Positions 16-24,018 are shown, numbered from the stretch's first letter. The stretch: 32,000 bases of DNA from Pyrobaculum calidifontis JCM 11548 (GCF_000015805.1 NC_009073.1:1350001-1382000), one strand, 5' to 3'. Program-made: numbers and translations. The notes: generated from the sequence alone by a model not told the origin.

Positions 16-35
16 CTTAAAAAGATTTATTCCAC
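16..35 (-). promoter_or_regulatory. GGAATAA-box plus TATA promoter pointing left, out of the window
   Basis: Minus strand reads GTGGAATAAATCTTTTTAAG. The driven gene would start left of position 1. Confidence 0.4.
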
Positions 36-58
36 TAATCTCGGAAAGACTTCCTCCA

Positions 59-77
59 GTGGAATAAGGTATATATA
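59..77 (+). promoter_or_regulatory. GGAATAA-box plus TATA promoter of the DsrE-like gene
   Basis: GTGGAATAAGGTATATATA. TATA is centred ~24 nt upstream of the ATG at 97. Confidence 0.5.
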
Positions 78-96
78 CATGCCCCAAGTCGCCCAC

Positions 97-447
97 ATGC
101 CGGATAAAGTGGCCTTCTTAGCCACAATGCCGCCTGCAGATGGGCCTAGAATTTCTACAATGCTCGGCTACGCCTTGGCAGCCGCCTCTATGGGATTCGA
201 GGTGTTGATTTTCTACACCTTGGACGCAGCCCACATAGTAAAAAAGAAAGTCTTTGAAAAACTAGACCCGCAGATTAGGGAGAGGTTTAAGCAGTGCATG
301 GACATGGGGTGTAAGATGTGGCTGTGCTCCTCGGCCGCGGCCACCTTCAACATAAAAGAGGACGAGGTAGTGGAGGGAGTCAAGATAATGGGCATAGCGA
401 GCTTCTACGAATACGCGGCTGAGGCCAAGGTTGTGCTCACTTGGTGA
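97..447 (+). CDS. DsrE/DsrF-like sulfur-relay family protein
   Basis: ORF-track 13..447 trimmed to the ATG at 97. The TATA tatatata at 70-77 is centred ~24 nt upstream, so the mRNA is leaderless. KVAFLATMPP...GFEVLIFYTLDA...WLCSSAA resembles the DsrE-like (COG2210-type) fold with a conserved Cys. Confidence 0.7.
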   Translation: MPDKVAFLATMPPADGPRISTMLGYALAAASMGFEVLIFYTLDAAHIVKKKVFEKLDPQIRERFKQCMDMGCKMWLCSSAAATFNIKEDEVVEGVKIMGIASFYEYAAEAKVVLTW

Positions 448-928
448 CCTCCACGGCGTCTACGTATCCAAACTTGTTTTTTAACTCTGCCAAGTACTCC
501 TCCGCCCTTTCTCTAATTAGCAAGGCCGCGATCTGGGCCCAGTTGAAGAAGCCCCACTCGAGGGGGACTGTGAACTTCACTGAGAGGAACCCGTAGAGGC
601 CGGACTCGTCGCATTTCACTGGGAATAGAGACATGGCGTAGTTGAGCCTGTACCCAGGCCAGGGGAGGTCCTCCACCTCGCCCAGGAGAGTGGTCTCCCC
701 CTCCGCGTCGGCGCAACCAGCGGTGGTAAAGACGCGTATGTTCAAGTCTATGAAGCCCATCTTGTACCTACTCCCGTCGAGGACCACCAAGGCGTAGAGG
801 TTGACGTCTCGGACCCAGAGGTGTAACTTTTCCGAGGGGTCTTGAAAGACGAGGACTTGGGGAAACTCCCGGAGGTAGACGGGGCGGGAAAAAGACCTTA
901 TCTTTTTTTCAAACTCCTCAAATTCCAT
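437..928 (-). CDS. Uncharacterised ~163-aa protein translationally coupled to dsrB copy 1 (orfX1)
   Basis: ORF-track 437..985 trimmed to the ATG at 928 (MEFEEFEKK...), which overlaps the dsrB1 stop by 11 nt. Divergent homolog of 7822..8322, sharing LFP(V/I)K...Y...KF and Y(L/F)xELK(N/K) blocks at matching positions. Confidence 0.6.
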   Translation of the reverse strand: MEFEEFEKKIRSFSRPVYLREFPQVLVFQDPSEKLHLWVRDVNLYALVVLDGSRYKMGFIDLNIRVFTTAGCADAEGETTLLGEVEDLPWPGYRLNYAMSLFPVKCDESGLYGFLSVKFTVPLEWGFFNWAQIAALLIRERAEEYLAELKNKFGYVDAVEVTK

Positions 929-2075
929 CTCTGAGCCGCGGGTAGACGTCGCCGCGGGATCTGTAGGTGAGGAACGTCCTGGCAAACTCAGGCACTCTCT
1001 GGTAGTAGTCTCTAACCTTGCCGAAGCCCAGCAGATCGAGGAACTTAGTCCACCCCACTCTCTCGATGAAGTCGGCGAGTCTCTCGCCGGGCTGGGCGTG
1101 CTGCCTCCACGTCTCTACTATGTGCTTTACCACGGCCACTATCTCCTCATACCTCGGCGGATTTGCGGGCAACCACGGTATCAACACCCGGCCCAGCCTG
1201 GGGCCAGTGCCAGTGTTAGACATCTTGCCGCCCACGAGTATTGACACGCCCACGTTTTCTGGGTCGTAGTCAAAGGCGTCGCAGTTCTCCTTACACCTGG
1301 CGCAGTTGATGCACTTTTCCCCAATTAGGACGAGCTTTACCTTGTCCCCCTCCCTCCTCAGAGAAAGGGCGCCGGTGGGGCAGACTTGGACTAGGAATAT
1401 CTGCGACTCCGGCAACTTGGCCAAGGCCTTAGGCGGCGGGAGACACATGGGGAGGACCTCCTCGCGTATCTTCGGCGGGGCGCCCCACTGGCCCACTATT
1501 GCTATATCTATAGCTGTGCCGCCAGCGCACATGGCCGGGCAACCGCTGACGAAGACCCTGAGCTTTGCGGGAAGCGGAATCTCGCCAGTGAAGTAGGGCT
1601 TCAGCGCATCGCCGAGGGCCTTGCTAATACTTGGGCTATCCACCACCGCGGTGGTGCACGTCAGATATGCAGTACAGCTGTTGATTCCCCACAAGGCGCC
1701 GCCCCAGCCTCCCACTGGGAAGCCCAGCTTCTCCACCTCCTCCTTGATCTTAAGCGCCTTCTCCAGAGAGTCTGTCAGAAACTCTATGTTGCCTGCCATG
1801 GTCACCCTCAGCGCGCCTATGCCCAACTTGTCCGCAATATCGGCAAATTTGTCCAACGTATCCGCCGAAAGCCTCGCGTTAGGCGGCAACGCGACTTTCA
1901 CAGTGAATATCCTCTCCCCAGTGGCAGAGACGTGCTCAATTATACCATTGCCATGGAACTTCCTATCCACCCACTTTCCATAGTTCCTGAGTATGGCCTC
2001 GGGCAGAAACTTCTCTAAGTCGACGGGGAAGACCTTCTGCAACCTCTCAGCCTTAGACGGGGCGGCGGCGGTCAT
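918..2075 (-). CDS. dsrB: Dissimilatory sulfite reductase-type protein, beta subunit (copy 1)
   Basis: Siroheme/[4Fe-4S] motifs CTAYLTC (Cx5C) and SGCPAMC (Cx3C). Ferredoxin insert CPTGA...CINCARCKENC. 4-nt overlap with dsrA1. Confidence 0.85.
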   Translation of the reverse strand: MTAAAPSKAERLQKVFPVDLEKFLPEAILRNYGKWVDRKFHGNGIIEHVSATGERIFTVKVALPPNARLSADTLDKFADIADKLGIGALRVTMAGNIEFLTDSLEKALKIKEEVEKLGFPVGGWGGALWGINSCTAYLTCTTAVVDSPSISKALGDALKPYFTGEIPLPAKLRVFVSGCPAMCAGGTAIDIAIVGQWGAPPKIREEVLPMCLPPPKALAKLPESQIFLVQVCPTGALSLRREGDKVKLVLIGEKCINCARCKENCDAFDYDPENVGVSILVGGKMSNTGTGPRLGRVLIPWLPANPPRYEEIVAVVKHIVETWRQHAQPGERLADFIERVGWTKFLDLLGFGKVRDYYQRVPEFARTFLTYRSRGDVYPRLRDGI

Positions 2076-3316
2076 ACCCCCACCTTGCCCTTGAGCTCTT
2101 CCACCAGCTTTAGGTACATGTCTCTCTCCTCCTTGGGCAACACTGCGTAGGGCACGTCGTCCGGCGTCTTGGCAATGGACTCGGGCATGCCCTCAAGCTT
2201 AATCCCAGCCTTCTCAATGAACTTGTCCAGCCCAGTCACCAAAATGTAGTCGCCGAGCCTGTACTTGGGCTGAGCCTCGGCCTCCCAGGGGGCAATGACC
2301 TTGAAGGTGAGGTCTATGGCCTCCTTCACCTGGTCCGGCCTTAGGTAGCCGATGAACCAGCCTAGCTTAGGCCCATACCTCCCCTTAACTCCGCCCCCAA
2401 TTACTACAGCGACTTTCCTATTCTTGCCTGGCTTTATGGCTGGGAAGGCTGTGCGGATGCAGTGCATAGACTTTTTGCACTTGCTCCCATCAATCACGAG
2501 CTCTTTCTTCTCGGCGTCCCACCTAATGGCGCCGCTGGGGCAGTTAGCGGCAAGCTTCACCGGGTCCACAACCCCCCTCTCCACAAGCTCCCTAAACTTA
2601 GCCTGATCCACCTCAGGAGCACCCTCCCACACGCCAATGAAGCCTATGTCTGCCCTGTTGGCGCGGGCGCAGTCCAGAGGACAGCCAGATATTTTGATCT
2701 TGAACTTGTAGGGGTAGTTGGGCGTCGCTATGTTGTCGTTGACGCGTTTGTCTTTGTGAAACTCCGCGTACCACTTCAAGGTGTCGAAGAGGGCGAATTC
2801 GCATAGGGCGGGCCCGACGCAGGCGTTGAGGGCTCTTATGGCGTCTCCGCTGCCGCCTACGTCTGTGCCTATGGACCTAAGGGCGTCCACCATCTCCTCT
2901 GCCTTGTCGGGCGTTAGGTTGAGGACAAAGGCGCCGGTCTGCCCCACCACCTCTATAAGTCCCACTCCCAGCTCTCTGGAGATCTTTGTAATCTTTCTTA
3001 TGAAGTCGGTCTTCCAGAACTTGCCTGGGGTGTGGAAGACTCTGAAGTGCACCTCTACGCCGCCGCCTGGAACCCAGTCTCTGGCCCACCGGGATAATAC
3101 CCCCGTGTTTACATAGGCCACCTTGACGGCGCCGGGGCCCCAGGGGGACTTCCTAGCCGCGAGGCCCACGCCGTAGACTCTGAGCGGGTACTGGGTCTTC
3201 CTCAGCTCCGCCACGTGGCTCGGCCAAGGCCCCTTCTCAAGCTCTTTCAATATCTCCTCGGCCCTCTGTAGAAGCTGGTCGGGCGGCGGTAGGTTGGGCG
3301 GTGCTGACATGAGCAT
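2072..3316 (-). CDS. dsrA: Dissimilatory sulfite reductase-type protein, alpha subunit (copy 1)
   Basis: Motifs CVGPALC (Cx5C) and SGCPLDC (Cx3C), plus ferredoxin-like insert CPSGAIRW...CKKSMHC. The second ATG at 3310 fits the TATA spacing better. Confidence 0.85.
   Translation of the reverse strand: MLMSAPPNLPPPDQLLQRAEEILKELEKGPWPSHVAELRKTQYPLRVYGVGLAARKSPWGPGAVKVAYVNTGVLSRWARDWVPGGGVEVHFRVFHTPGKFWKTDFIRKITKISRELGVGLIEVVGQTGAFVLNLTPDKAEEMVDALRSIGTDVGGSGDAIRALNACVGPALCEFALFDTLKWYAEFHKDKRVNDNIATPNYPYKFKIKISGCPLDCARANRADIGFIGVWEGAPEVDQAKFRELVERGVVDPVKLAANCPSGAIRWDAEKKELVIDGSKCKKSMHCIRTAFPAIKPGKNRKVAVVIGGGVKGRYGPKLGWFIGYLRPDQVKEAIDLTFKVIAPWEAEAQPKYRLGDYILVTGLDKFIEKAGIKLEGMPESIAKTPDDVPYAVLPKEERDMYLKLVEELKGKVGV
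2424..2629. repeat. Near-identical 206-nt tract shared with 9771..9976 (dsrA ferredoxin-like insert)
   Basis: By-eye alignment shows about 5 mismatches in 206 nt, all synonymous. Flanking dsrA sequence is much more diverged. Confidence 0.8.
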
Positions 3317-3330
3317 ATCTACGTGCCCCC

Positions 3331-3350
3331 TTTTAAGCCCTATTCCTAAC
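3331..3350 (-). promoter_or_regulatory. GGAATA-box plus TATA promoter of dsrA copy 1
   Basis: Minus strand reads GTTAGGAATAGGGCTTAAAA, 18-24 nt upstream of the ATGs at 3316/3310. Confidence 0.5.
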
Positions 3351-3368
3351 CAACGTGTAACAACTGTT

Positions 3369-3842
3369 TTACACAGATGTACATACGACGCGCAGAGAGG
3401 CTTTTACCCTCTCTGCCACTGGCGAGAGGGCGGCCGCCAGCTCTCCGTCTATTAGCCCGCGTTTGACCAGGTATATGTACAAAAGCTCAACGTCGTTAAG
3501 CGGCATATCGGGCCTGTAGAGCTTAGCCACCTTCTCAACAAGCGCGAGGGCGCGCGGCCCGTCTAGGCCCCACTTCGAGGCCAGCTTATCCACTAAGTAC
3601 CGCCGGGGCCCCTCCCTCTGGATGAGGGCTATGATGCCCATGGGAGTGGCTTTGTAGACCCTCTGCCCCCTAGACGCCGCGGCTGAGGCCAAGAAGCCTC
3701 GCCTTTCGAGTTCCACCACCTTCTTGTAGGTGTAGGAGAAGAAGAGGCGGTTATCGACGGCTATCCTATAAGCTGTCACGGGCTCGCGCATGGCGACATA
3801 AGACAAGATTAGGTACTCCCTCTCGTCGAGTTTATCAAACAT
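3369..3842 (-). CDS. Winged-helix (wHTH) transcriptional regulator, archaeal type
   Basis: N-terminal YLILSYVAMREPVTAYRIAVDNRLFFSYTYKKVVELERRGFL looks like HTH plus wing. Paralog of 4167..4877. Its own promoter carries the GGAATAA box. Confidence 0.55.
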   Translation of the reverse strand: MFDKLDEREYLILSYVAMREPVTAYRIAVDNRLFFSYTYKKVVELERRGFLASAAASRGQRVYKATPMGIIALIQREGPRRYLVDKLASKWGLDGPRALALVEKVAKLYRPDMPLNDVELLYIYLVKRGLIDGELAAALSPVAERVKASLRVVCTSV

Positions 3843-3860
3843 GGAGGTAGGGAGGCAACA

Positions 3861-3880
3861 CTAATTATCTCTTATTCCGC
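3861..3880 (-). promoter_or_regulatory. GGAATAA-box plus TATA promoter of wHTH regulator 3369..3842
   Basis: Minus strand reads GCGGAATAAGAGATAATTAG. TATA is ~23 nt upstream of the ATG at 3842. Confidence 0.5.
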
Positions 3881-3946
3881 CGACGCGGCGGAAGTATTTC
3901 CCCCACCCTTGTAATAACGTTTATAACTATCCAACGGGGTAGGGCC

Positions 3947-4192
3947 ATGTTGACCTACGACGATGTGGTGTCCAAGTTCTGCCTCTGCGACATAGAGATA
4001 TACCTAAAAGTGAAAGACGGCGTGGTGGTCGCTCCCGCCCAGTACGCGGGGAAAAGGGCAGAGGAGGTCCTTAAGGCGGCGAAGGGCGTTGTAGTGAAGA
4101 CGGAGCAAGGCGGATACCTCCACTACTTCGTAATACGTAGGTCTGCCTACCTCAGGAAGACCGCAGTCAAGCCTGCCGCGGCCCTAGCCTAA
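3947..4192 (+). CDS. Small hypothetical protein (81 aa)
   Basis: ATG at 3947 lies 23 nt downstream of TATA tttataac (3920-3927). No recognisable domain. Confidence 0.4.
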   Translation: MLTYDDVVSKFCLCDIEIYLKVKDGVVVAPAQYAGKRAEEVLKAAKGVVVKTEQGGYLHYFVIRRSAYLRKTAVKPAAALA

Positions 4193-4877
4193 TTCTCCCA
4201 ACTATTTTTTCCATCAGCGTGGGGCAGGGGTCTAGGCTACAGTACTTGTCCCGCCCGCACATCTTACAATGGGCAGCGAAGAGCTTGTACCCACCGTCCT
4301 CTTTAAATAACACCGCCGTATACTCCTCATCTCTCACTATAAGCGCTTCGTCAAATATCTTCCTCACCAACGATATAACCGCATAGGCGGCCACTCTGCT
4401 GGCCAACACCGCGTCCCCCCTCTCCATCTGGGAAAAACACTTCTCAAGCCTATTCCCACACCTCGTGGCCAAGTAGGCTCCCACCAGCTCCAGCCCCTCG
4501 AGGGGGGCATCCCCTGCGGCCACCCTCCCGTAGAACTTCAGAAAGGCCTCCACCTCCTCGTCTGAGAAGGACTCCAGCCTAAGCCTCCGCTTGATCTTGG
4601 CCAAGATGAGGGACTTAGGCGCAGTGCCGTAGATCAGCGGGATTAAGAGCCCCCTCACCGTGGCGTAGTACACTGTGGATCTCCCAGCCGACGCGGGCTC
4701 GAGGAGGCGCTGCGCTACGAGCTTATTCACCTTTCTATACACATGAGAGAAGTGCATGTTGAGCCCCCGCGCCACTCTGTACATAGTAACAGGCTCGTTT
4801 ACGGCCACAAAGGACACCATGGCCCTAGCGGTTTCGTCGACCTTTACCCCAACAAGACTAGAAAGTTCGACCAACAT
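4167..4877 (-). CDS. wHTH transcriptional regulator with Cys-rich C-terminal domain
   Basis: N-terminal VAVNEPVTMYRVARGLNMHFSHVYRKVNKLVAQRLL is paralogous to 3369..3842. The C-terminal domain has Cx6C and CKMCGRDKYCSLDPC (Cx2C-x5-C-x4-C). Confidence 0.55.
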   Translation of the reverse strand: MLVELSSLVGVKVDETARAMVSFVAVNEPVTMYRVARGLNMHFSHVYRKVNKLVAQRLLEPASAGRSTVYYATVRGLLIPLIYGTAPKSLILAKIKRRLRLESFSDEEVEAFLKFYGRVAAGDAPLEGLELVGAYLATRCGNRLEKCFSQMERGDAVLASRVAAYAVISLVRKIFDEALIVRDEEYTAVLFKEDGGYKLFAAHCKMCGRDKYCSLDPCPTLMEKIVGRIRLGPRQA

Positions 4878-4959
4878 TAGTAATATGATAGCCGAGGTTA
4901 ATAAACGTTTCTAACAATAATGATCTATCACACAATTTTTTACAAACATACACGTGAAT

Positions 4960-5415
4960 CTATCCGGGCGCATGGTGTAAAAGCTTGTACATCTCCATAT
5001 ACCTCCTCTCGAGGATGTACGCTACTTTCCTAAACTTCTCCACGTCTATGTCGGTGACGCAGACGCAACCCACCTGCCCGCCGCTGGCCTCCACCATGAC
5101 CACTCTCCCCTCGGCCACTCCCAGGAGGATGGCCGACTCCTCGCCTCCATACAGCTCGACGTAGGGGGGCTCCACCGAGACGGGAGAGGCCTTAGACACG
5201 CAGTCGGGGTAGGCTGTGGCCTTGATGGCCTCCACTAGCTCCCCGTCTTCCAAGCACCGGGGCTCCCCCTCCCCCTCGAAGACGAGGAGGTCCCCCTTGA
5301 CCCAGAGCCCGTCCCAGAGGGCCATGTCGTAGCCGCTGGGCTTGCAGGGGCGGCCCCTGGCGCTTATCCATTTGGCCAACAGCTGGAAAAAGTCGGGTAT
5401 TGATACAACGCTCAC
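4960..5415 (-). CDS. Hypothetical Cys-containing protein (151 aa) downstream of tusA
   Basis: GTG start 8 nt after the tusA stop. No recognisable domain. Six Cys residues. Confidence 0.45.
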   Translation of the reverse strand: MSVVSIPDFFQLLAKWISARGRPCKPSGYDMALWDGLWVKGDLLVFEGEGEPRCLEDGELVEAIKATAYPDCVSKASPVSVEPPYVELYGGEESAILLGVAEGRVVMVEASGGQVGCVCVTDIDVEKFRKVAYILERRYMEMYKLLHHAPG

Positions 5416-5422
5416 ACGCCGC

Positions 5423-5650
5423 TTACTTGAGCCTGCGAACTACAATGCGTAGGTACCCCTCGGCGGTTTTCTCAGAGGAGACCACCTCGTGCCCCATGCG
5501 CTTGGCCCACGCCCTTATGTCTGGATCCGCCGCGGGGTCGGTGGCGAGGACCTCCAAGACGTCGCCCACGGGCACCTCGTTTATGGCCTTGGCAGTCTCC
5601 ATAACGGGGATAGGGCAGAACTTCCCCCTCACGTCCAACGTCTTGGGCAT
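5423..5650 (-). CDS. tusA: TusA/SirA-like sulfurtransferase
   Basis: ORF-track 5423..5737 trimmed to the ATG at 5650 (MPKTLDVRGKFCPIPV). Classic LDxRGxxCPxP motif. TATA is 24 nt upstream. Confidence 0.8.
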   Translation of the reverse strand: MPKTLDVRGKFCPIPVMETAKAINEVPVGDVLEVLATDPAADPDIRAWAKRMGHEVVSSEKTAEGYLRIVVRRLK

Positions 5651-5669
5651 AAGGTAAGGGGAGGCTACG

Positions 5670-5688
5670 TTTAAAAGCCTTATTCCAC
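5670..5688 (-). promoter_or_regulatory. GGAATAA-box plus TATA promoter of tusA 5423..5650
   Basis: Minus strand reads GTGGAATAAGGCTTTTAAA. TATA is ~24 nt upstream of the ATG. Confidence 0.55.
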
Positions 5689-5697
5689 AGCCCCTGG

Positions 5698-6126
5698 CTA
5701 CTTCTCGCTTACCTGTTTTAGGTTCTCCTCCATGCAACTGCCCATGGCCTTTAGCAGAGTCACCATGAGGCCCATGGCCTTCTGCACCTCTGGGTCACGC
5801 ATGGCGGAGAGGAGGCCGAAGAGCCCCACACGCGGCGCCCCGTCCTCGGCCACCTGTCTCAACGCCTTGCTGGCGCAGACCACGCCTCCCTGCATGGCGG
5901 CGCCCAAGGCGTTCAAGTCAGCCGAGTCCATTATGGACAACATGGAGATGAGCGGCGCCGCCACTTTGAACACCTGTATGTCCGCCATTAGGTGGGGCAA
6001 CTTCTCCAGCACGATCTTTACTGGGAGGAGGAGGGAGCTCAACTCCTCCACCTCCCTGCGCAGGGCCTGCACCTCCTGCAGAAGTCTCTCGTAGTCGGCC
6101 TTGGGTATTGTGACTACCTCGCTCAT
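5698..6126 (-). CDS. DUF1641-like protein (partner of SQR/NDH-II-type flavoproteins)
   Basis: C-terminal GLFGLLSAMRDPEVQKAMGLMVTLLKAMG resembles the DUF1641 signature. 4-nt overlap with the upstream flavoprotein gene. Confidence 0.6.
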   Translation of the reverse strand: MSEVVTIPKADYERLLQEVQALRREVEELSSLLLPVKIVLEKLPHLMADIQVFKVAAPLISMLSIMDSADLNALGAAMQGGVVCASKALRQVAEDGAPRVGLFGLLSAMRDPEVQKAMGLMVTLLKAMGSCMEENLKQVSEK

Positions 6127-7283
6127 GGCACTACCCCCAGAAGCCAGTTGAAGTACACTTTCTCAAACATCTCCTTGAACAATCGCGTCGCAGGTGCTGG
6201 CGGAAGGAACATGCAGTCGGGGTACGGCTTCTGCTTTTTCACAAACGGCGTGAAGTCGCAGGCAGCGGCCATTCCAAAGGCCCCCACGTCTAAGGCGCAT
6301 GTGCCAACAATTCTAAACGGGGGCTTCCCGAGGTATACGCCGAATAGGTCGGCGGCTATGTTGCTTATAACCCAGGGCATGTAGCTGTGTAGAATTGTCC
6401 CAGCCATCCCCACTGGGACGTTGGGAGCGGCAACGTCGCCTATTACGTATACGTCGTCGTATTTTGCGCTTCTAAAGTCGCCGTTGGCGGGGTTGCGAGG
6501 CGCCGCCCACCCATTTTTAGCCAAGTCACTGTTGAGCACGGGGTCCGGCGCCTTGTGCGGCGGGACAATAAAGGCCGCGTCGAACTTAAACTTCTCCCCG
6601 GTGGTGGTTTCCAGCTCGCTCTTGCCCAAGCTCTTGATTGCCGTGGACTGCCCCACGCCGACGTATTCAATCCCCAGCTGCTGTAGGAAGCCGGACATCC
6701 ACTTGGCCGCCATTGGGCCAAAGTTCTCAAAGGGCCTCTTGAGCGGGTGCACCACAGTTATCTTGACCTTGTCTCTCAGTCCCCGGGTTAGGTAGTAGAA
6801 GTGGGTAAGCATTGCCAGCTCGATGGGGGCTGGCGGACAGCGGTAGGGCAGAGAGTAAACGCCGATGACGATGTGCCCCTGCTTCACCTGGGCGAGGGCC
6901 TCGGCAACCTTGAGAGAAGGCTCTAGCTCCCACGTGTGGGGGAACCCAGTCTCTACGGTCTCTGCGCCGAGGGCCACCACCAACACGTCGTAGGTAAACT
7001 CCCCGGCCGTCGTCTTCACCTTCCTATTGGCCGCGTCTATGGCTGTCACCTTGGCCTTCACAAAATTTACCCCGTGGCGTTTTACGTGCTCAAGAGGGAC
7101 AGAGACTTCCTCCGGCCTCCTGTAGCCAAAAGCCACGTAGAGGTACGAAGGCCTAAAGTCCGTCCTATCCTTGGCGTCTATGAGCGTTATTTCCACATCC
7201 CCCGGCCCAAACCTCTCCCTAAGCTCCTTCACAGTCATTAAGCCGCCAGTTCCACCGCCCAGAACCAACACCTTTTTGGGCAT
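6123..7283 (-). CDS. sqr: Sulfide:quinone oxidoreductase-type FAD flavoprotein
   Basis: KVLVLGGGTGG Rossmann motif. Conserved-Cys contexts PYRCPPAPIE and GTCALDVG, plus VYVIGD. Start moved to the ATG at 7283 (TATA 24 nt upstream). Confidence 0.75.
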   Translation of the reverse strand: MPKKVLVLGGGTGGLMTVKELRERFGPGDVEITLIDAKDRTDFRPSYLYVAFGYRRPEEVSVPLEHVKRHGVNFVKAKVTAIDAANRKVKTTAGEFTYDVLVVALGAETVETGFPHTWELEPSLKVAEALAQVKQGHIVIGVYSLPYRCPPAPIELAMLTHFYYLTRGLRDKVKITVVHPLKRPFENFGPMAAKWMSGFLQQLGIEYVGVGQSTAIKSLGKSELETTTGEKFKFDAAFIVPPHKAPDPVLNSDLAKNGWAAPRNPANGDFRSAKYDDVYVIGDVAAPNVPVGMAGTILHSYMPWVISNIAADLFGVYLGKPPFRIVGTCALDVGAFGMAAACDFTPFVKKQKPYPDCMFLPPAPATRLFKEMFEKVYFNWLLGVVP

Positions 7284-7302: not shown

Positions 7303-7320
7303 GTATTAAAGCATTATTTC
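7303..7320 (-). promoter_or_regulatory. Degenerate (GAAATAA) box plus TATA promoter of sqr
   Basis: Minus strand reads GAAATAATGCTTTAATAC. TATA is ~24 nt upstream of the ATG at 7283. Confidence 0.4.
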
Positions 7321-7369
7321 TCTCGTGTGGTAATAAAAATGTGAAAAATTGCCGGCGTTGTGGGAAGGA

Positions 7370-7792
7370 TTATATAAACAGAGTGACGGAGGCGTCCTTT
7401 GCCCTCTCGAGGAAGGTGGCGGCGCCCACCACCTCGTCCACGAAATCGGCGAGTTGCGCCTTGTCTTTTATGCCAAACATCTCCATGGTGGTAGAGCACG
7501 CGTAGACGCGTACGTTGCCCATGGACTTGGCTTGTCTTATAAGCTCGTGCCACGGCGGGAAGTTCATCTGCTTAACCGCCTGAGCCACCGCGGGGGCATA
7601 CTCTGCGAAGTCGGCCGAGATCTTCATCTGGGACAAGTTCTCCTTCCTAATGGCGTTTAGCCCCCAGAAGGTGAAAAAGAGCTCCACGTCCCAGCCCCCA
7701 GCGGCGGCCGCGCTCGAAAGAATGGCCACGGGGTACAGCTTGTCCACAGTGCCGCTCCACACGATTATTGCAAGCTTGTTTTTCTTTTCCAT
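7370..7792 (-). CDS. dsrE: DsrE3-type DsrE/DsrF-like sulfur carrier protein
   Basis: KLAIIVWSGTVDKLYPVAIL...VELFFTFWGLNAIRK...VYACSTTMEMFGI is typical of COG2210/DsrE3-like proteins with the active Cys. Confidence 0.75.
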   Translation of the reverse strand: MEKKNKLAIIVWSGTVDKLYPVAILSSAAAAGGWDVELFFTFWGLNAIRKENLSQMKISADFAEYAPAVAQAVKQMNFPPWHELIRQAKSMGNVRVYACSTTMEMFGIKDKAQLADFVDEVVGAATFLERAKDASVTLFI

Positions 7793-7810: not shown

Positions 7811-7830
7811 ATTAATAAGAGTTATTCCAC
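7811..7830 (-). promoter_or_regulatory. GGAATAA-box plus TATA promoter of dsrE 7370..7792
   Basis: Minus strand reads GTGGAATAACTCTTATTAAT and overlaps the stop codon of orfX2. TATA is ~23 nt upstream of the ATG. Confidence 0.55.
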
Positions 7831-8322
7831 GCCCTCAGTGGAAGTACTTGTCAACGCCTTTTTAAGCTCTAGGAAATACGCGTCGCTGTCTAGCTCGAAC
7901 TGGTCTATCAAGTCCTCAATGTTTCCAGCAGTTAAGTTTTCCACAAAGGTCTTAAACCCCATCGCGGCGTAGACCACCTCCCCCTCCTGTTTTATTGGGA
8001 AGAGGAAGGGCGCCGGGTTGCCGAACTTCTCCACAGAGAACCTAGTCGTGGCGTCCTCCAGCTCCTCCACGTTGGAGACGCCCTCAAGGCGCCTCACGTC
8101 GTCCAGGTTCAAGAAGGCCAAGGCGTAGCCCTCCTCAGTCTTCAAGGCAGTGACAAGGTAGGGCCTGGGCCTACCCGGGAGGGAGAGGATGTAGGTGGCC
8201 TCGGCCCCCTCCTCCAGCTTCGCCAGCTCGTGGACCAAGTCCTCTACCTCCCCCAGCTCCTCAACTCCGTGGTTAAACCTAAGCCTTAGTAAAAAGTCCC
8301 CAATTATGTCGTAGATGCTCAC
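7822..8322 (-). CDS. Uncharacterised ~166-aa protein translationally coupled to dsrB copy 2 (orfX2)
   Basis: 4-nt overlap with the dsrB2 stop. Divergent homolog of 437..928. Confidence 0.6.
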   Translation of the reverse strand: MSIYDIIGDFLLRLRFNHGVEELGEVEDLVHELAKLEEGAEATYILSLPGRPRPYLVTALKTEEGYALAFLNLDDVRRLEGVSNVEELEDATTRFSVEKFGNPAPFLFPIKQEGEVVYAAMGFKTFVENLTAGNIEDLIDQFELDSDAYFLELKKALTSTSTEGVE

Positions 8323-9419
8323 GCCAAGAACTGCCTTATGCCGAACTCGCCCTCAAATTTCACGGGCTTATTCCACTTGGTGACTGGGATGTTCAACATC
8401 TCGTAGAACTTCTCCATGCCAATTCTGTGCACCCAGTCGCCCAGCCTCTCCCCCTCCCTGGCGTTCTGCCTCCACACGTCGATTATCTTCTTCACCACGG
8501 CCACGATTTCCCTATACGCGGGCGGGATGGCTGGCACCCAGGGTATTACCTGCACCGAGGGGAGCGGGCCTCTGCCTGTGTTGCTCGCCTTGCCGCCTAT
8601 GAGCACGGCCACTCCGGCCTTGCTCTGGTCGAAGTCAATCCAGTCACAGACGTCGCGGCAGCGGCCGCAGGCGATGCACTTGGACCTAATTATGTCGAGG
8701 CCCACAGAGCCGTCGGGTTTTCCATACACCTTTATGGCGTTGGTGGGGCACACCTCGGCCACCTCTGGCACGTGGCCGGCCTCCAGGGCCTTGGCGGACT
8801 TGGGGAGGCAGAGTTTTATCCTCTCGGGGTCGTAGGTGGGGGCGTCTCCGTAGTGGCCCACCAGGTTTATGTCCGCTGTGAACCCGCCGCAACTGCTGGG
8901 GCAACCAGAGACGTTTATCCTAAGCTTCGCCGGGAGAGTTATCTCGCCTGTGAAGTAGGGCTTAAGCGCGTCGTAGAGAACCTTGGTAATGCTGGGCGCG
9001 TCCACCACCGCTGTGGTGCACGTCAGAAAGGCAGTACAGCTGTTTATAGACCATATGGTGGGGCCCCAGCCTCCCACTGGGAAGCCCAGCTTCTCCACGG
9101 CCTCCTTGATCTTAAGCGCGTTCTCTAGAGAGTCTGCCATGAACTCCACGTTTCCGTTTCTGGTAATCCTCAGCGCCCCGATGCCGTAGGTGTCAGCGAT
9201 TTCGACAAACTTCTTGAGAGTGTCGACGCTGACCCGGAAGTTGGGCGGCGTGCCCACCTTCACTGTGAATATCCTCTCCCCAGTGGCAGAGACGTGCTCA
9301 ATTATGCCGTAGCCGTGGAACTTCCTATCCACCCACTTGCCCAAATTCCGCTTCAGCGCCTCCGGCAGCCAGTCGGTGTAGGGTACTGGGAGCCTCTTCT
9401 TAAACCTCTCAGCGCTCAT
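8319..9419 (-). CDS. dsrB: Dissimilatory sulfite reductase-type protein, beta subunit (copy 2)
   Basis: CTAFLTC and SGCPSSC motifs. Ferredoxin insert CPTNA...CIACGRCRDVC. 4-nt overlap with dsrA2. Confidence 0.85.
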   Translation of the reverse strand: MSAERFKKRLPVPYTDWLPEALKRNLGKWVDRKFHGYGIIEHVSATGERIFTVKVGTPPNFRVSVDTLKKFVEIADTYGIGALRITRNGNVEFMADSLENALKIKEAVEKLGFPVGGWGPTIWSINSCTAFLTCTTAVVDAPSITKVLYDALKPYFTGEITLPAKLRINVSGCPSSCGGFTADINLVGHYGDAPTYDPERIKLCLPKSAKALEAGHVPEVAEVCPTNAIKVYGKPDGSVGLDIIRSKCIACGRCRDVCDWIDFDQSKAGVAVLIGGKASNTGRGPLPSVQVIPWVPAIPPAYREIVAVVKKIIDVWRQNAREGERLGDWVHRIGMEKFYEMLNIPVTKWNKPVKFEGEFGIRQFLA

Positions 9420-10670: not shown

Positions 10671-10692
10671 GTTTAAAAATTCCTTATTCCCC
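10671..10692 (-). promoter_or_regulatory. GGAATAA-box plus TATA promoter of dsrA copy 2
   Basis: Minus strand reads GGGGAATAAGGAATTTTTAAAC. TATA is ~22 nt upstream of the ATG at 10654. Confidence 0.55.
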
Positions 10693-15551: not shown

Positions 15552-15773
15552 CTACCCTTGCCCCTTCTTCCTTACGTACACCACATAGCCGCCCCCGGCC
15601 TCCTCCACCCTTTCCACCTTGTACTCGAGCAGAGGCAACATGACTCTGAGCGTCTTTACGCAGTCTTCGTCGTCTGTGACCACCTGGAGCTCCCCCGGGC
15701 TCTTCTCCATTATGGCTGAGAGGGCTTGTTGAGCCGGCTCGGGGCAGGGCCTCCCCCTGATGTCTAAGATCAT
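15552..15773 (-). CDS. TusA/SirA-like sulfurtransferase
   Basis: MILDIRGRPCPEP motif. The start overlaps the stop of the SelD-like gene by 4 nt. Confidence 0.7.
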   Translation of the reverse strand: MILDIRGRPCPEPAQQALSAIMEKSPGELQVVTDDEDCVKTLRVMLPLLEYKVERVEEAGGGYVVYVRKKGQG

Positions 15774-17473
15774 AAAATTTCAAAGTCTTTGAACTCCCCC
15801 AAATACCTTTCCCACTGGGTCTCTGCCACTCTACACCTCTCCCTCCCCCTGCAGGCCTCCTCTGCGAATTTCCTAATGGCGTCTGCGTCGCCCTCCACAA
15901 CCACCTCCACGCGGCCGTCGGGGAGATTTCTAGCGTAGCCCGTCAAGCCCAGCACCCGGGCCCTAGACCTTAGGTAGGGCCTATAGCCCACACCCTGCAC
16001 GTCCCCCTCCACGTAGATCCTAGCCCTCGCCGGCTTGGCCACCCCCAGCCCCGCAAGGATGGGCGCCTGGGCGGCCAACTTCTCCTTGAGCTTTCTATTG
16101 GATATGTAGGACAGGGCCTCCGGGGGGACGTGGAGCCGCCCCTCGCCTCTGCCCACCACTCTGCCCACCACCCTGGGGGATAGGTGGGGGATCTTGGACA
16201 GCTCCTTCACCACCTCCTCTGCCAGAGACTCGTGGAGGAACAGGGCCACCGCGCCGTTGGTCCCCGCGGTGGCGTCGGGCATAATGTAGAAGTCTGCGGC
16301 GAATTTAGAGAGCTTGGGGTTGAGGAGGGGCACTTCGAACAGCTCTATGTCTACCCCGGCCTTCTCCGCCACCTCTTTAAAGACGAAGATCCCGGGCCCC
16401 GAGACGTCTATCGTCGCGGCTATGTGATCCTCAGCCCTAAACCTCTCCCCCAGCCCCGGCAGGTGGCGGTATATCACCTTGGCCACCTCGGCGTTGGGAG
16501 TGGCCATAAGCTCGAGGACTCTCCTCTTCTCTCTCTCAAACTCCTCAAGGGGCATCACCGAGGACTCGAAGGCCTTTAGAAGCTCCTCGTCTGCGTGGAT
16601 GGCCACGTAGGTGGTGAAGTAGGCAAGTTCCCCGAAGGGCCTAGTGACCACCACCACGAACCCTCTGTCCAACTCTCTGTAGAAGGTGGGGGGCTCCCTG
16701 TCCAGGTAGCCCCACGCCGTGGCGCCCAGGAGGAGGTAGCCCCGGCGGGGGAGGGGGGCCTCCACCACTTTGCCCAGCCTAGAGGCGTGGGCTAGGTAGC
16801 TCTTCTCCACCCCCTCGTACCAGCGCTCAGGCGCGTCGTATATGGGGGCTATGTGGACGTCTTTGTAGACGCCTTTGACGTAGAGGTCGTTGAGGGCGTT
16901 GTTTATCGCCACGGCCACCTGGAGTGGGGAGTCCAAGTCCTCGGAGGGGTCTATCACTTGGATAGTGTCGTTGTTGGCGAGGATGTAGCCCCCCTCGCCG
17001 TAGGTCTTTAAGAAGTCTACCATGAAGAACTCCGCGCCCTGCTTCGTGCTCACTATGCTGTGCCCCTTGCCGAGCCACACCCTGTGCCGGGTGGAGCCAA
17101 GCGCCTTGTAGAGCCTCGCGGCGTACTCGGCGAATCTCTCCGCCGAAGCGGCCTTGGCCATGTAGAGTTGCACAAGCACCACCGCCAGAGAGGGGGCAAA
17201 GGACTCCACAGCCGCGGCGTCGAGCTGTGGGTTCTCCACGTCGAGGAAGACCCTCATCAGCTGGGCCTCCTCCCCCCTTACAATGGCCGCGTCCTCCCTG
17301 GGGGCAATGACTAGGTTGAGCTTCGACACCTCGTCCCTCAGGAGCTGGATGGCGGGGTACAACACGTCGTAGAGGTCCACCTTCACAGAGCAACCAAGCG
17401 AGAGAGACTCCAGGGCGATGCCCGCCTCGCGGTACAGCTTGACCCTCTCCCTAAAACGCTCGATTGGGCTCAT
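15770..17473 (-). CDS. SelD-like (PurM/AIR-synthase-related superfamily) protein fused to a C-terminal acylphosphatase domain
   Basis: SelD-like blocks: LGCSVKV, REDAAIV, AINNALNDLYVKG, VTRPFG, IDVSGPGI, DATAGTNGAVALF. C-terminal YVEGDVQGVGYR...GYARNLPDGRVEVVVEG is an acylphosphatase signature with the catalytic Arg and Asn. Confidence 0.65.
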   Translation of the reverse strand: MSPIERFRERVKLYREAGIALESLSLGCSVKVDLYDVLYPAIQLLRDEVSKLNLVIAPREDAAIVRGEEAQLMRVFLDVENPQLDAAAVESFAPSLAVVLVQLYMAKAASAERFAEYAARLYKALGSTRHRVWLGKGHSIVSTKQGAEFFMVDFLKTYGEGGYILANNDTIQVIDPSEDLDSPLQVAVAINNALNDLYVKGVYKDVHIAPIYDAPERWYEGVEKSYLAHASRLGKVVEAPLPRRGYLLLGATAWGYLDREPPTFYRELDRGFVVVVTRPFGELAYFTTYVAIHADEELLKAFESSVMPLEEFEREKRRVLELMATPNAEVAKVIYRHLPGLGERFRAEDHIAATIDVSGPGIFVFKEVAEKAGVDIELFEVPLLNPKLSKFAADFYIMPDATAGTNGAVALFLHESLAEEVVKELSKIPHLSPRVVGRVVGRGEGRLHVPPEALSYISNRKLKEKLAAQAPILAGLGVAKPARARIYVEGDVQGVGYRPYLRSRARVLGLTGYARNLPDGRVEVVVEGDADAIRKFAEEACRGRERCRVAETQWERYLGEFKDFEIL

Positions 17474-17739: not shown

Positions 17740-17765
17740 TGTTGCAAATGTGCAAAAAAGACACT

Positions 17766-18126: not shown

Positions 18127-18432
18127 ATGGTGAGGGCGGCGGCCGCCAAGCTGGGGGAGCTACCCGACAAAAGGCCTGTTCCCAAGACGGTGGAGGCCAC
18201 GCCGCTCGTCCTCGTCCGCGACGGCGAAAGAGTATACTGCGCCTACGGCATATGTCCACACGGCAGGTGGCTCCTCAGCCTCGGCGACTATAAGGAGGGC
18301 AAACTGAGGTGCAAGGGCCACGGCTCCGTCTACGACTTGGCCACCGGCGCGGGGGAGCTCAACGGCTACCCGCTTCAGATAAAGGCGTACAAGGCCGAGG
18401 TCGTGGGCGACAGCGTGTACGTGGAGGTTTAA
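18127..18432 (+). CDS. Small Rieske [2Fe-2S] domain protein
   Basis: CPHGRW-x-CKGHGS, that is CxH-x16-CxxH. Confidence 0.75.
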   Translation: MVRAAAAKLGELPDKRPVPKTVEATPLVLVRDGERVYCAYGICPHGRWLLSLGDYKEGKLRCKGHGSVYDLATGAGELNGYPLQIKAYKAEVVGDSVYVEV

Positions 18433-18515
18433 CCCCCCGCCGAGCCTGCGGATCTGTCAAAAGGCTTTCTGCCAGCTATGTTCAAAAATCTTTAATTGTA
18501 CAAGACGGTAGTTAC

Positions 18516-20215: not shown

Positions 20216-20251
20216 AGAATTGCGTTTATAAACCCCAGCCAGCGTGTCAAC

Positions 20252-21436: not shown

Positions 21437-22178
21437 GCCCGCCTTGTTGATTACGCTTGGCGCGCTGGGCGGCGCGGCGGCCTTTGCCCACTTGGCCTCG
21501 CCCAAGTGGGCGGCTTTTGCGGGAGGGGTTGTTTTACACATGGCGCTAGTCCAAGCGTTTCTAGCGGCGTCTTTCGTCAAATCCCTCGCCGTAGTGGCCC
21601 CAGTGAACTTAATCCCCTTGTTCATCCTCGGCGTATTTACCACATCTGCGGCATTCATGCTGGGGGTAATCGCAACAATAAAGTGGGGGGAGAGGCACCT
21701 CTACCTCCCTCTGGCCCTCTCAGCGGCTCTTTTGGCAAACAAGGCCCCCGCCGTAGAGGCGCTTCAAACATACGGCGTAGACGTCACCTATCTGGGCTAT
21801 GTGGCATACGGCATGCTCCTAGCCGCCTCCGCCTCTGCCGTCTCCCACAACCTAGCACTTAGGCTGCCCTCCGCCTACCCCCTCGCCTTTGCGGTCGCCG
21901 CGCTTTTAGGCAACTTAGCCTACGCCGCAACCCCCAACCTCCTATACTCCGAGGGCCTCCTCTACTACATGTTCACCACGGCCAACCTCTACTCTTTCAA
22001 CTCGGCTATGATGGTGTACCTAGGCTTTAGAAACAACGTGGCGGCCTTGGGCAAAATGGGCGGCTTTAAGTCCACCAAGTTTTGGCTCTACCTCCTCCTT
22101 GGAAACCTCGCTTACGGCCTTGTGGAAGTGTTATTCATGATTAAGAACCCACAGGTTCACGACCTTTTACACAGATGA
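21420..22178 (+). CDS. Integral membrane protein (~8 predicted TM helices), unknown family
   Basis: Hydrophobic throughout. Its stop overlaps the start of the Tat-flavoprotein gene (ATGA). The true start is uncertain. Confidence 0.5.
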   Translation: MLPPVEPALLITLGALGGAAAFAHLASPKWAAFAGGVVLHMALVQAFLAASFVKSLAVVAPVNLIPLFILGVFTTSAAFMLGVIATIKWGERHLYLPLALSAALLANKAPAVEALQTYGVDVTYLGYVAYGMLLAASASAVSHNLALRLPSAYPLAFAVAALLGNLAYAATPNLLYSEGLLYYMFTTANLYSFNSAMMVYLGFRNNVAALGKMGGFKSTKFWLYLLLGNLAYGLVEVLFMIKNPQVHDLLHR

Positions 22179-23374
22179 AGAGGCGCGACCTCCTAAAGCT
22201 CGCCCCCTTGCCCCTCTTAGCCGCGTTGTTGCCCCTAATCTGGCCCAGGGGGCGCCCGGGGGCAGACGTCAAGGCTAAGGTCTTGGTGGTTGGGAAAGGC
22301 ATTGCCGGCAGCATGGTGAAAATGATCTTAGACAGCCACGGTGTGGGGGCCACGGTGCTTGAGTGTTCAGACGCGGCTCTGCCCGGGCCTGGGAAAGTGG
22401 ACGTGGCCCTGGGGCTCGCCGACGCGGGAGACCTCCTAGTCCACTTAGGCGTCGGCGGCGGCGTGGTGAAGACCTGCGCCACGGGCATAGACCCCGACAA
22501 CCGCCTCGTCTACACAGACACCAGGGTGTACTCCTACGACATCCTCTTCTTGACGCCGGGCGTGGTCTTCGACTACGGCGCAGTGGAGGTCAAGGGCAGA
22601 GTGGACAACTTTACCCCCTACGAGTTAGGCTCGGCGCTGGCCAAGAGGGAGCTGAGCGCCGGGCGCTACGTGATTGTACACCCCAATTTGCCCTACCGGT
22701 GCACCTCGGCGCCCTACGAGTTCGCCCTCCTCCTAGACTGGAGACTTAGGGAGGAGGGGAAGCCCCACAGCGTCACCATAATCTCGCAGGTGGGGAAGAT
22801 CCCGGCCGTCTTTGAAAAATATATCTCACAGATGGGGGAGCTCGTGTGGAAAATACTGGAGGAGAGGGGTGTCGAGTACATAAACGCCGAGGTAGAGCTC
22901 GTGGATGGGGAAAACAAGGTGGTGCACCTCTCCACTGGGGAGAAGGTTCCCTTCGACTACCTCACCTTAGTGCCCCCCAATAAGGCTCCTAGGTTTATCT
23001 CAGCTGTGTCAAACGCCGAGGGGTTCTACGTGGAGGTAGACGAAAGGATGAGGCACCCCAAGTACAGAGATATCTACGTGGCGGGAGACGCGGTTTGGCA
23101 CGTGGTTAAGACAGGATGGGCCGCGGCCACCGAGGCCGCCATAGCCGCCGCGTGGGCGCTCGAGGACTTAGGCATAAGCGTGGAGAAGCCCAAGGAGATA
23201 TACAGCGAAGATGCTATAAGGATAACCCCAGACCTGGGGATTAGGGGGGCGAAGAGGTGGTACCCAATATACGGCGATGTTTACTGGCGGCAGATAGAGG
23301 GCCCAAGCCCAGAGGTCGTGGAGGCGAAGAAAAAAACAATAGAGTTCTTCCGACAGTTGCTAAAATACTACTAG
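22175..23374 (+). CDS. Tat-signal SQR/flavocytochrome-c-sulfide-dehydrogenase (FccB)-like flavoprotein
   Basis: MKRRDLLKLAPLPLLAALL twin-arginine signal. VLVVGKGIAGS FAD motif. PYRCTSAPYEF conserved-Cys context and YVAGDA motif. Confidence 0.7.
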   Translation: MKRRDLLKLAPLPLLAALLPLIWPRGRPGADVKAKVLVVGKGIAGSMVKMILDSHGVGATVLECSDAALPGPGKVDVALGLADAGDLLVHLGVGGGVVKTCATGIDPDNRLVYTDTRVYSYDILFLTPGVVFDYGAVEVKGRVDNFTPYELGSALAKRELSAGRYVIVHPNLPYRCTSAPYEFALLLDWRLREEGKPHSVTIISQVGKIPAVFEKYISQMGELVWKILEERGVEYINAEVELVDGENKVVHLSTGEKVPFDYLTLVPPNKAPRFISAVSNAEGFYVEVDERMRHPKYRDIYVAGDAVWHVVKTGWAAATEAAIAAAWALEDLGISVEKPKEIYSEDAIRITPDLGIRGAKRWYPIYGDVYWRQIEGPSPEVVEAKKKTIEFFRQLLKYY

Positions 23375-23731
23375 TCTGTCCACTTCCTCCAGGAAGGTGT
23401 ACATTGAGGTGACCTTGTCCACAAGCGCGGGGTCATACTCCTCCTCGGAGATTCCAAAGATCTTGCTGGCCGTTTCGCAGACGTATACCTTGACGCTCCC
23501 TATGGACTTCGCTGTAGAGAGCAGGGACTTCCAATCCACGCCCAACTCCACGATTCTCTTGTGCTCTGGCGAGGATAGGGGAGGGGCGTACTCTTTTTTA
23601 AACGCCTTGACAGCCTCCCCGGTGACGAATATGCTAACCTCCTCGCCCCTGGCCACCAGCGTAGACACAAGCGTGGCAAATTCGTACAGTCTCACAAAGT
23701 CGCCGCTCCCCACTATGATTCCAAAGGCCAT
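23360..23731 (-). CDS. dsrE: DsrE3-type DsrE/DsrF-like sulfur carrier protein
   Basis: ORF-track 23360..23755 trimmed to the ATG at 23731 (MAFGIIVGSGD). VKVYVCETASKIFGI Cys motif. TAATG junction with the upstream tusA. Confidence 0.75.
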   Translation of the reverse strand: MAFGIIVGSGDFVRLYEFATLVSTLVARGEEVSIFVTGEAVKAFKKEYAPPLSSPEHKRIVELGVDWKSLLSTAKSIGSVKVYVCETASKIFGISEEEYDPALVDKVTSMYTFLEEVDRLVVF

Positions 23732-23979
23732 TACCTCTCTATCACAATGCGCCAAACGCCCTTCTCAGGCATGTCCATGGCGACGACTTTGCTACCGTTT
23801 CTCTCAGCCACAGACTTTATATTGTCGCAGGAGGGAGGGTTGTCTGTGTACACCACCAGGACCTCACCCTTCTTAATGCTCTTAAGCGCCTGTGCCGTAT
23901 ACATCTGGGGGTAGGGGCACACAAAGCCCTTTAAATCTAGCTCGTACTTCCCATCCCCAATCTTCTTCAAGCTGGGCAT
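23731..23979 (-). CDS. tusA: TusA-like sulfurtransferase (two-Cys subtype)
   Basis: ATG at 23979 (MPSLKK...). LDLKGFVCPYPQ plus TDNPPSCDNI. Paralog of 17470..17715. GGAATAA-TATA promoter at 24001-24018. Confidence 0.8.
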   Translation of the reverse strand: MPSLKKIGDGKYELDLKGFVCPYPQMYTAQALKSIKKGEVLVVYTDNPPSCDNIKSVAERNGSKVVAMDMPEKGVWRIVIER

Positions 23980-24000
23980 GCCGACCCCCATTTTGCACAA

Positions 24001-24018
24001 TTTTAATCATTATTCCAC
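24001..24018 (-). promoter_or_regulatory. GGAATAA-box plus TATA promoter of the tusA-dsrE3 pair
   Basis: Minus strand reads GTGGAATAATGATTAAAA. TATA is ~25 nt upstream of the ATG at 23979. Confidence 0.55.

Follow-up and report, generated by a model that had tools for sequence, protein, structure and literature searches.

In a 32,000-nucleotide stretch of the Pyrobaculum calidifontis JCM 11548 genome (NC_009073.1, positions 1350001 to 1382000; hereafter the window), a nine-base box, GTGGAATAA, recurs just upstream of the TATA box of genes of sulfur metabolism. A reading made from the sequence alone had proposed that the box is a shared regulator site rather than a strong version of the BRE, the element next to the TATA box that is recognized by transcription factor B (TFB). 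The analysis described here suggests that the box is probably one half of a dyad-symmetric operator for a dimeric winged-helix regulator encoded in the same gene island, through which the sulfur promoters would be co-regulated. The regulator part of the earlier proposal is supported by sequence features that lie beyond the reach of TFB, namely the GNGG at the start of the box, a T located 12 nt farther upstream, and the dyads, whereas its opposition of regulator site and BRE is refined to a composite box, the AATAA at the end of which is probably the BRE itself.

The window (GC content 58.6%) has the same sequence as metagenome contigs from hot springs (JGI 3300030446; ENA PRJEB12287), and contigs of the same organism that overlap it over 10.4 kb with 0 mismatches add 9.9 kb to its left (to position -9903). 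The resulting 41.9-kb composite, about 42 kb, represents a single sulfur island with 27 promoters available for comparison, 11 with the box and 16 without. Start codons were curated; dsrA1 was taken from its second ATG (3310, the start called in public contigs) and tusA3 from the ATG at 23979. For comparison with relatives, four DsrA-related loci from genome collections were used together with loci around homologs of wHTH236, one of two winged helix-turn-helix (wHTH) proteins encoded in the window. The window DsrA1 is 81% identical to DsrA1 of a Pyrobaculum metagenome-assembled genome (MAG).

The exact nonamer occurs 6 times in the window, compared to 0.11 expected copies, and 0 of 100 shuffles reached that number. 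Allowing at most one mismatch yields 12 matches against 4.0 expected, 7 of them promoter sites and one an intragenic copy. Across the composite there are 8 exact copies against 0.17 expected, and 10 of 11 GGAATAA heptamers lie at promoter position. All nine sites listed by the sequence-only reading were recovered where it had placed them and in the same orientation, as was a perfect inverted pair between 27 and 67 (TTATTCCAC-N23-GTGGAATAA), and the promoters it had named as box-free indeed lack the box. Its spacing rule, 2–4 nt upstream of the TATA box, is better replaced by a sharper invariant: in all 11 promoters, the first G of the box stands 38–39 nt before the start codon as curated, with a T-rich TATA region at +12 to +18 from that G. 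The individual sites are the following:

27–35, minus strand: box GTGGAATAA, dsrC promoter; first G 39 nt before the dsrC ATG, TATA box at about 16–24
59–67, plus strand: box GTGGAATAA, dsrE promoter (gene 97–447); first G 38 nt before the ATG at 97
3340–3348, minus strand: degenerate box TAGGAATAG, dsrA1B1 promoter; 38 nt before the second ATG, 3310
3872–3893, minus strand: perfect dyad TTCCGCC-gcgtc-GGCGGAATAA, wHTH157 promoter; exact match to the dyad pattern
5680–5688, minus strand: box GTGGAATAA, tusA-hyp151 promoter; kept in an approximately 88%-identical strain (L018)
7314–7322, minus strand: weak variant GAGAAATAA, sqr-DUF1641 promoter; 2 mismatches, correct register
7822–7843, minus strand: perfect dyad TTCCAC-tgagggc-GTGGAATAA, dsrE2 promoter; exact match to the dyad pattern
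8368–8376, minus strand: exact GTGGAATAA within the 3' end of the dsrB2 coding sequence (codons K-W-N-K)
10684–10692, minus strand: box GGGGAATAA, dsrA2B2 promoter; divergent from hemD
24010–24018, minus strand: box GTGGAATAA, tusA3-dsrE3 promoter; 39 nt before the ATG at 23979
left of the window: box GTGGAATAA, promoter of a DsrK/HdrD-like gene; same register
left of the window: box GTGGAATAA, promoter of a DsrM-like gene; same register
left of the window: box AGGGAATAA, promoter of a third SQR gene (SQR3); same register

The first two sites form the inverted pair of the divergent dsrC/dsrE promoter region, and the gene served by the first of them, which had been assigned to a position outside the window, is dsrC. 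The exact copy at 8368–8376 had been overlooked; it has no TATA box, is in the wrong register, with the next start codon 54 nt away, and is probably a chance or non-promoter occurrence. The sqr promoter (GAGAAATAA) and the promoter of the small gene hyp81, which carries the near-box TTGTAATAA, are intermediate between the box and non-box classes. The dsrE2 box itself (7822–7830) supplies the end of an upstream open reading frame (ORF; 7822–8322), comprising its two final sense codons and its stop codon (V-E-stop), and the entire dsrE2 dyad is contained in the 3' end of that frame. Short sequences are also shared between the TATA box and the start codon: CCTCCC(c)TTACCT is common to the tusA (about 5651–5669) and wHTH157 (3843–3861) promoters, and CCCAAGT occurs at equal distance in the divergent dsrC (about -1 to -15) and dsrE (82–96) promoters. 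These may be a second element or coincidences.

The symmetry of the sites and their extension upstream of the box point to a dimeric regulator rather than to TFB. Perfect inverted repeats with identical spacing are found at two promoters, those of wHTH157 (3872–3893) and dsrE2 (7822–7843). The pattern TTCCNC-N7-GNGGAA has 2 matches in the window against 0.04 expected, and its variable base changes symmetrically in both halves (TTCCAC/GTGGAA versus TTCCGC/GCGGAA). When all 11 box promoters are considered, 10 of them have a T at 12 nt upstream of the box, mirroring the invariant A at box position 5 (P about 5e-5 at the 30% T of local promoter DNA, and about 1e-3 when corrected for 24 positions), and the base at -8, the mirror of the first box G, is a C in 7 of 11. 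The mirror-match score over the same promoters peaks at spacers of 5–7 nt. Both upstream bases are located 20–24 bp upstream of the TATA box. The properties of an operator, an inverted repeat with fixed N7 spacing at several promoters, are therefore present, with a distal half that is degenerate at most sites in the window. Palindromes as a mere by-product of divergent promoters were considered and rejected for 3872–3893 and 7822–7843, since no start codon lies 38 nt from the half on the opposite strand and, in the latter case, also because the dyad lies inside an upstream ORF; such an origin does hold for 27–67 and for the AprB/hyp302 pair in another Pyrobaculum locus (L011).

The relationship between the box and the BRE was assessed by aligning the 16 non-box promoters with recognizable TATA boxes on their start codons. 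GNGG at -39 to -36 was found in 0 of these 16, and GNGGAATAA is absent from the same 16 of the 27 promoters, which show only a loose A-rich stretch. In many of them a BRE-like stretch at -35 to -31 (AGAAA, AATAAC, or GAGAAAT) is aligned with the AATAA of the box, and AATAA is therefore read as probably the BRE part of it. AATAA (box positions 5–9) fits the BRE location within about 7 bp upstream of the TATA box, with GNGG (positions 1–4) and the T(-12)/C(-8) bases farther upstream. The box would hence be a composite element, AATAA probably being the BRE or a good version of it and GNGG the part that appears specific to the box promoter class. The information content in the 11 box promoters amounts to 14.1 bits for the 9 box positions, compared to 9.7 bits for the spacer and TATA box over the next 14 positions. 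The box is better conserved than its own TATA region, which is unusual for a basal element. With regard to gene class, the box promoters comprise 10 of sulfur genes and 1 of a regulator gene, and the non-box promoters 5 of sulfur-related and 11 of other genes (Fisher p = 0.005, within one sulfur island).

An alternative interpretation would take the whole box as an extended or optimal BRE, read by TFB or by one TFB paralog, which would mark strong or paralog-specific promoters without any dedicated regulator. The paralogs tfb1 and tfb2 are available for such a role, being present in all sequenced Pyrobaculum (PMC3388794). The box, at -39 to -30, overlaps the canonical BRE position, where its AATAA is aligned with the A-rich stretch of non-box promoters; its strict orientation and its register relative to the TATA box correspond to the behavior of a core element, most sites are single, non-palindromic boxes, and related species have an AATAA-type sequence before many TATA boxes of their dsr clusters. 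Archaeal BREs are likewise purine- or A-rich, directly upstream of the TATA box, and fixed in orientation. TFB, however, contacts roughly 6–7 bp upstream of the TATA box. GNGG at 8–11 bp and T(-12) at about 24 bp fall outside that range, so that with C(-8) the element reaches 8–24 bp upstream of the TATA box and forms dyads at some sites, in contrast to a BRE. Three organisms have perfect dyads at a constant N7 spacing, for which TFB, a monomeric and oriented factor, would have no need. The stronger conservation of the box compared to the TATA box, its occurrence at a regulator gene, a weakly expressed type of gene, and its absence from 16 neighboring promoters also argue against a general core element, and we regard this explanation as quite unlikely.

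It is also very improbable that the likeness of the boxes was inherited with promoters copied along with duplicated genes (dsrAB in two copies; tusA, dsrE, and sqr in three each) or arose by chance. Many box genes are indeed paralogs, and dsrA1 and dsrA2 share what looks like a recent gene-conversion tract. In contrast, the non-paralogous genes dsrC, dsrM, dsrK-like, and wHTH157 bear the box, and the paralogs tusA2 and sqr2 do not; chance would yield an expected 0.11–0.17 copies. Copied promoter cassettes were rejected on the grounds that the flanks just outside the box and the TATA region carry about 0 bits of information. The tract in the two dsrA genes, whose proteins are 53% identical, extends over about 205 nt with 5 mismatches (2424–2629 versus 9771–9976) and corresponds to about 75 identical residues in the ferredoxin-like insert.

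Related elements were found outside the window organism. In the MAG of Vulcanisaeta sp. AZ3 (L009), five dsr-cluster promoters contain G[TG][GT]NAATAA, and 3 of the 5 have an N7 dyad:

SQR3 homolog promoter: TTCCAC-atttaat-GTGGAATAA
dsrC promoter: TTCTAC-gtacaat-GTGTAATAA
dsrM promoter: TTTTAC-gtattat-GTGAAATAA

In a Pyrobaculum MAG (L007), dsrE and dsrC are transcribed divergently from promoters that use a single dyad, TTTCAC-catcggc-GTGCAT, and the distance from either half to the ATG of its gene is 38 nt. A further Pyrobaculum species (L011–L016) shows GG at -37 followed by A(A)ATAA before dsrC, dsrM, aprB, a tusA, and a YeiH-like gene, and its non-sulfur promoters, such as that of AhpC, have GAACAAC or AATAAC without the GG. 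In the approximately 88%-identical strain (L017/L018), the tusA box is unchanged, and only loose variants were seen in P. oguniense and a Thermoproteaceae MAG (L010). GG-A(A)ATAA boxes were also noted before aprBA, a divergent hypothetical gene, and a YeiH-like (PF03601) transporter gene by sat (L011 13540–13640 and 16100–16140; L008 19410–19450). Judging from these promoters, a related regulon in other Pyrobaculum may include sulfate-reduction genes.

Two genes in the window encode candidates for the factor that would bind the operator:

3369–3842, minus strand: wHTH157, the short paralog, with a winged-helix and a helical domain and no C-terminal cysteine motif; dyad on its own promoter
4167–4877, minus strand: wHTH236, the long paralog, with a C-terminal C-x2-C-x5-C-x4-C motif

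The two proteins are 33% identical over 129 residues (E = 3e-15) and are thus paralogs. Word-indexed searches with wHTH157 returned no relative on genome contigs and, among proteins, only copies of at least 95% identity. Its link to wHTH236 and to about 20 representatives emerged from an exhaustive HMMER search, and a narrower profile from the family alignment identified 4 metagenome loci, including one on a 138-kb contig (ERZ1684501 NODE_10, 138,720 bp) that belongs to the window organism. All family members of checkable source are of the Pyrobaculum/Vulcanisaeta type. With the family hidden Markov model (HMM), members were located beside dsr genes in five other lineages (L008, L009, L010, L011/L013/L022, and L021). 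The region of the recognition helix contains invariant GP-x-T-x-Y and F-S-x-x-Y-[RK]-K motifs. Long forms of the family share a conserved C-x2-C-G-x3-Y-C-x4-C motif together with two central cysteines (wHTH236 residues 140–218); the C-terminal motif could be a metal, Fe-S, or thiol sensor, although the confidence of the AlphaFold2 model is low in that region.

The assignment of both genes as wHTH regulators holds at the level of the predicted fold, whereas no sequence family supports it. No Pfam or NCBIfam model scored the family above threshold (MarR_2, 13.2 bits against a cutoff of 27; TrmB, 12.2 bits against a cutoff of 25.6, with E = 0.17 for wHTH236), the ArsR/HTH_20 Pfam models did not match the two proteins, and the best hit in a PDB profile search had E = 0.049. 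AlphaFold2 predicts wHTH236 with a mean predicted local distance difference test score (pLDDT) of 79.9, rising above 90 for residues 10–120. The model consists of a helix-helix-helix-beta hairpin winged helix (residues 15–72), a helical domain, and a small beta domain, in that order. The top Foldseek matches of this model are all wHTH regulators, the dimeric MarR and ArsR/SmtB proteins (ZitR 6fi9, CzrA, and SmtB), with probability 1.0. Known members of these families are dimeric and bind inverted repeats, but they differ from wHTH236, which has an extra helical domain and a cysteine-rich C-terminal beta domain.

A comparison between strains helps to distinguish the two paralogs. In the approximately 88%-identical strain, the wHTH157 homolog is a pseudogene, frameshifted and split over several frames (L017 1626–2079; L018 2017–2470); its promoter has lost the TATA box, its distal half-site has changed from TTCCGC to TTTTGC, and wHTH236 is intact. 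Because the tusA box is kept in that strain, wHTH236 appears to be the better candidate for the predicted primary factor binding the box. wHTH157 may have an accessory or a competing role and be controlled by the box in turn; the box on its promoter is compatible with autoregulation, as the sequence-only reading had suggested. Adjacent to a member of the regulator family in several lineages, the gene for an uncharacterized protein of about 150 residues, hyp151, forms a conserved gene pair with it (window 4960–5415; L011 10721–11155; L022 1945–2328; L021 1151–1360). The hyp81 ORF (3947–4192, plus strand) is convergent with wHTH236 (4167–4877, minus strand), with a 26-nt overlap at the 3' ends, and is conserved in L007 (54%) and L017 (77%).

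Based on these features, a simple model would place the box as the promoter-proximal half of an operator with the ideal form TTCCAC-N7-GTGGAA, the distal half of which is usually degenerate, keeping the T at -12 and the C at -8 from the first box G. At its 3' end the box would merge into the BRE-like AATAA that directly precedes the TATA box. A dimer of wHTH236 and/or wHTH157 would bind the operator, TTnnAC-N7-GTGGAA, centered about 46 nt upstream of the start codon, with its proximal subunit against the BRE and TFB; the dimer would thus be located upstream of the BRE, and not over the TATA box or start site. The four-cysteine C-terminal motif of wHTH236 would sense redox state or sulfur. Transcripts are assumed to be leaderless, as reported for Pyrobaculum in work cited in PMC6028130. 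At least 11 units would be co-regulated in this manner: dsrA1B1, dsrA2B2, the dsrC operon, dsrE, dsrE2, tusA, tusA3-dsrE3, dsrK-like, sqr3, dsrM, and wHTH157.

The bound factor would most likely act as an activator by stabilizing or recruiting TFB and the TATA-binding protein (TBP). Within the probability assigned to the operator as a whole, activation takes a somewhat larger share than repression, owing to the stereospecific geometry, the placement of the dimer upstream of the BRE, and the poor TATA boxes of several promoters. In the repressor version, which uses the same operator and protein family and is rather unlikely, occupancy of GTGGAATAA would block access of TFB to the BRE until a sulfur or redox signal arrives. 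The overlap of the proximal half-site with the BRE-like AATAA is consistent with such a role, as is the box on the regulator's own promoter, which fits negative autoregulation. MarR and ArsR/SmtB, the families closest in structure, consist mostly of repressors that ligands or metals release, and SurR, a sulfur-responsive archaeal wHTH protein, represses as well as activates (PMC12162507). Occlusion, however, requires neither an invariant orientation nor the 38–39-nt register seen in 11 of 11 promoters. Archaeal repressors usually bind over the TATA box or start site, whereas the predicted dimer center, at about -46, lies upstream of the BRE, and the poor TATA boxes of several box promoters (GATAATTAG and ATTAAAAT) suggest that help is needed rather than blocking. 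More specifically, but only as a tentative extension of activation through the operator, the four-cysteine winged-helix family, so far encountered only in Pyrobaculum/Vulcanisaeta-type (Thermoproteaceae) sequences, may be the master regulator of dsr metabolism in these crenarchaea, with wHTH236 as the sensor and wHTH157 as a sensor-less form, a dimer half-site fused to the BRE activating the island; redox state or sulfane sulfur is put forward as its signal just as tentatively, the two proposals being taken jointly.

Functionally, the closest known system is the SurR regulon of Thermococcales. SurR is also a cysteine-bearing winged-helix regulator acting on many sulfur and energy promoters of a hyperthermophilic archaeon, its sites lie next to or over the BRE and TATA box, and its own promoter has a site (PMC12162507). 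Membership in the SurR regulon was rejected, given that its motif is not found at box promoters and that the local proteins are unrelated at the Pfam level; a scan for GTTn3AAC(n5GTT) yielded 4 matches against 4.6 expected, none of them at a box promoter. The two systems further differ in lineage (Euryarchaeota versus Thermoproteota) and in targets, which are hydrogenase and MBS for SurR as opposed to dsr, tusA, dsrE, and sqr here. SurR is an ArsR-type double wHTH protein with a CxxC within its N-terminal wHTH domain, whereas the local proteins have a single N-terminal wHTH and, in the long paralog, central and C-terminal cysteines (C-x2-C-x5-C-x4-C).

The Thermococcales glycolytic motif, TATCAC-N5-GTGATA, is read by TrmBL1/Tgr, a dimeric wHTH protein with an effect that depends on the position of the site relative to the BRE and TATA box. 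It resembles the dyads described here as a hexamer inverted repeat ending in CAC...GTG, but differs in the half-site, in its spacing (N5 rather than N7), in the sugar-binding domain that the local proteins lack, and in the regulon. Ptr2 and TFB-RF1, two activators from Archaea, recruit TBP or TFB from sites immediately upstream of the BRE. The site described here similarly abuts the upstream side of the BRE with fixed geometry to the core promoter; in contrast to Ptr2 and TFB-RF1, activation is deduced from position only, and there is no evidence of homology. Taken together, the box would act like a transcription-factor operator fused to a BRE, read by an uncharacterized protein family and belonging to none of the known systems compared.

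Several observations weigh against the proposed operator and its regulator. A good distal half-site is missing from 9 of the 11 box promoters of the window organism, and the TTCC/GGAA pairs of the dsrC/dsrE region have other spacings (N9 and N6). TFB binding could account for part of the conservation, AATAA being at the BRE position, and the specificity of the box was judged from 27 promoters, all of them in one 42-kb sulfur island of the window organism. The element is not uniform across the genus: the GGAA-type boxes of L011 contain an extra A, its dsrM promoter has a TTCC-N9-GGAA spacing, and a second class of sulfur promoters in the same species uses GTTAATAA. With respect to the candidate regulators, the promoter of wHTH236 itself lacks the box and its GNGG, and the family HMM found no member within the 21 kb of L007, which does have a dyad. 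Structural similarity in Foldseek is weak (E = 5e-3 to 5e-2; query TM score about 0.3), and the proteins stay below every Pfam threshold.

With the exception of the two wHTH genes, which have no significant Pfam or NCBIfam match, the gene labels of the earlier reading agree with Pfam. The Pfam assignments in the window are as follows:

97–447: DsrE
918–3316: DsrB1/DsrA1
5423–5650: TusA
5698–7283: DUF1641 and SQR
7370–7792: DsrE2
8319–10654: DsrB2/DsrA2
elsewhere in the window: HemD, pirin, a second TusA, an SQR-like protein, the TusA3-DsrE3 pair, a sulfur transporter, a CBS protein, and HemA

To the left of the window, dsrC is followed by dsrN-like and methylase genes. An Rfam scan of the window returned no match, indicating that the boxes do not belong to any known RNA element, and none of the retrieved loci contains a tRNA gene. 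Downstream of tusA2, in an operon without the box, a 567-residue fusion protein (15770–17473) has an acylphosphatase domain joined to a 'putative sulfur metabolism protein' related to SelD (NCBIfam NF038049, E = 1e-199). Beyond the CBS gene (window 28235 onward, compared to L027 8602–10218), other strains carry a DUF1122 protein in place of the hyp190 and hemA genes of the window. Many contigs stop at this junction, which suggests that it is strain-variable.

The literature searched contains no description of the box motif, of the regulator family, or of a crenarchaeal dsr regulator, nor does it provide a Pyrobaculum BRE consensus in text form. To our knowledge, next to nothing has been established on how dissimilatory sulfite reductase clusters are regulated in Archaea. 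If the proposal is correct, it would provide a compact, testable cis-code, T-N11-GNGGAATAA at -38, and a family of candidate regulators in which cysteines are a plausible sensor. The list of co-regulated genes would tie hyp151, hyp166, hyp182/163, and DUF1641 to sulfur metabolism. The element would also be a clear case for studying how an archaeal factor positioned against the BRE communicates with TFB. Under the more tentative master-regulator version, the system would be the first defined dsr regulon and regulator in Archaea and a natural example of a half-site fused to a BRE as an activation device. More generally, the element would help to predict sulfur-responsive genes in hot-spring metagenomes.

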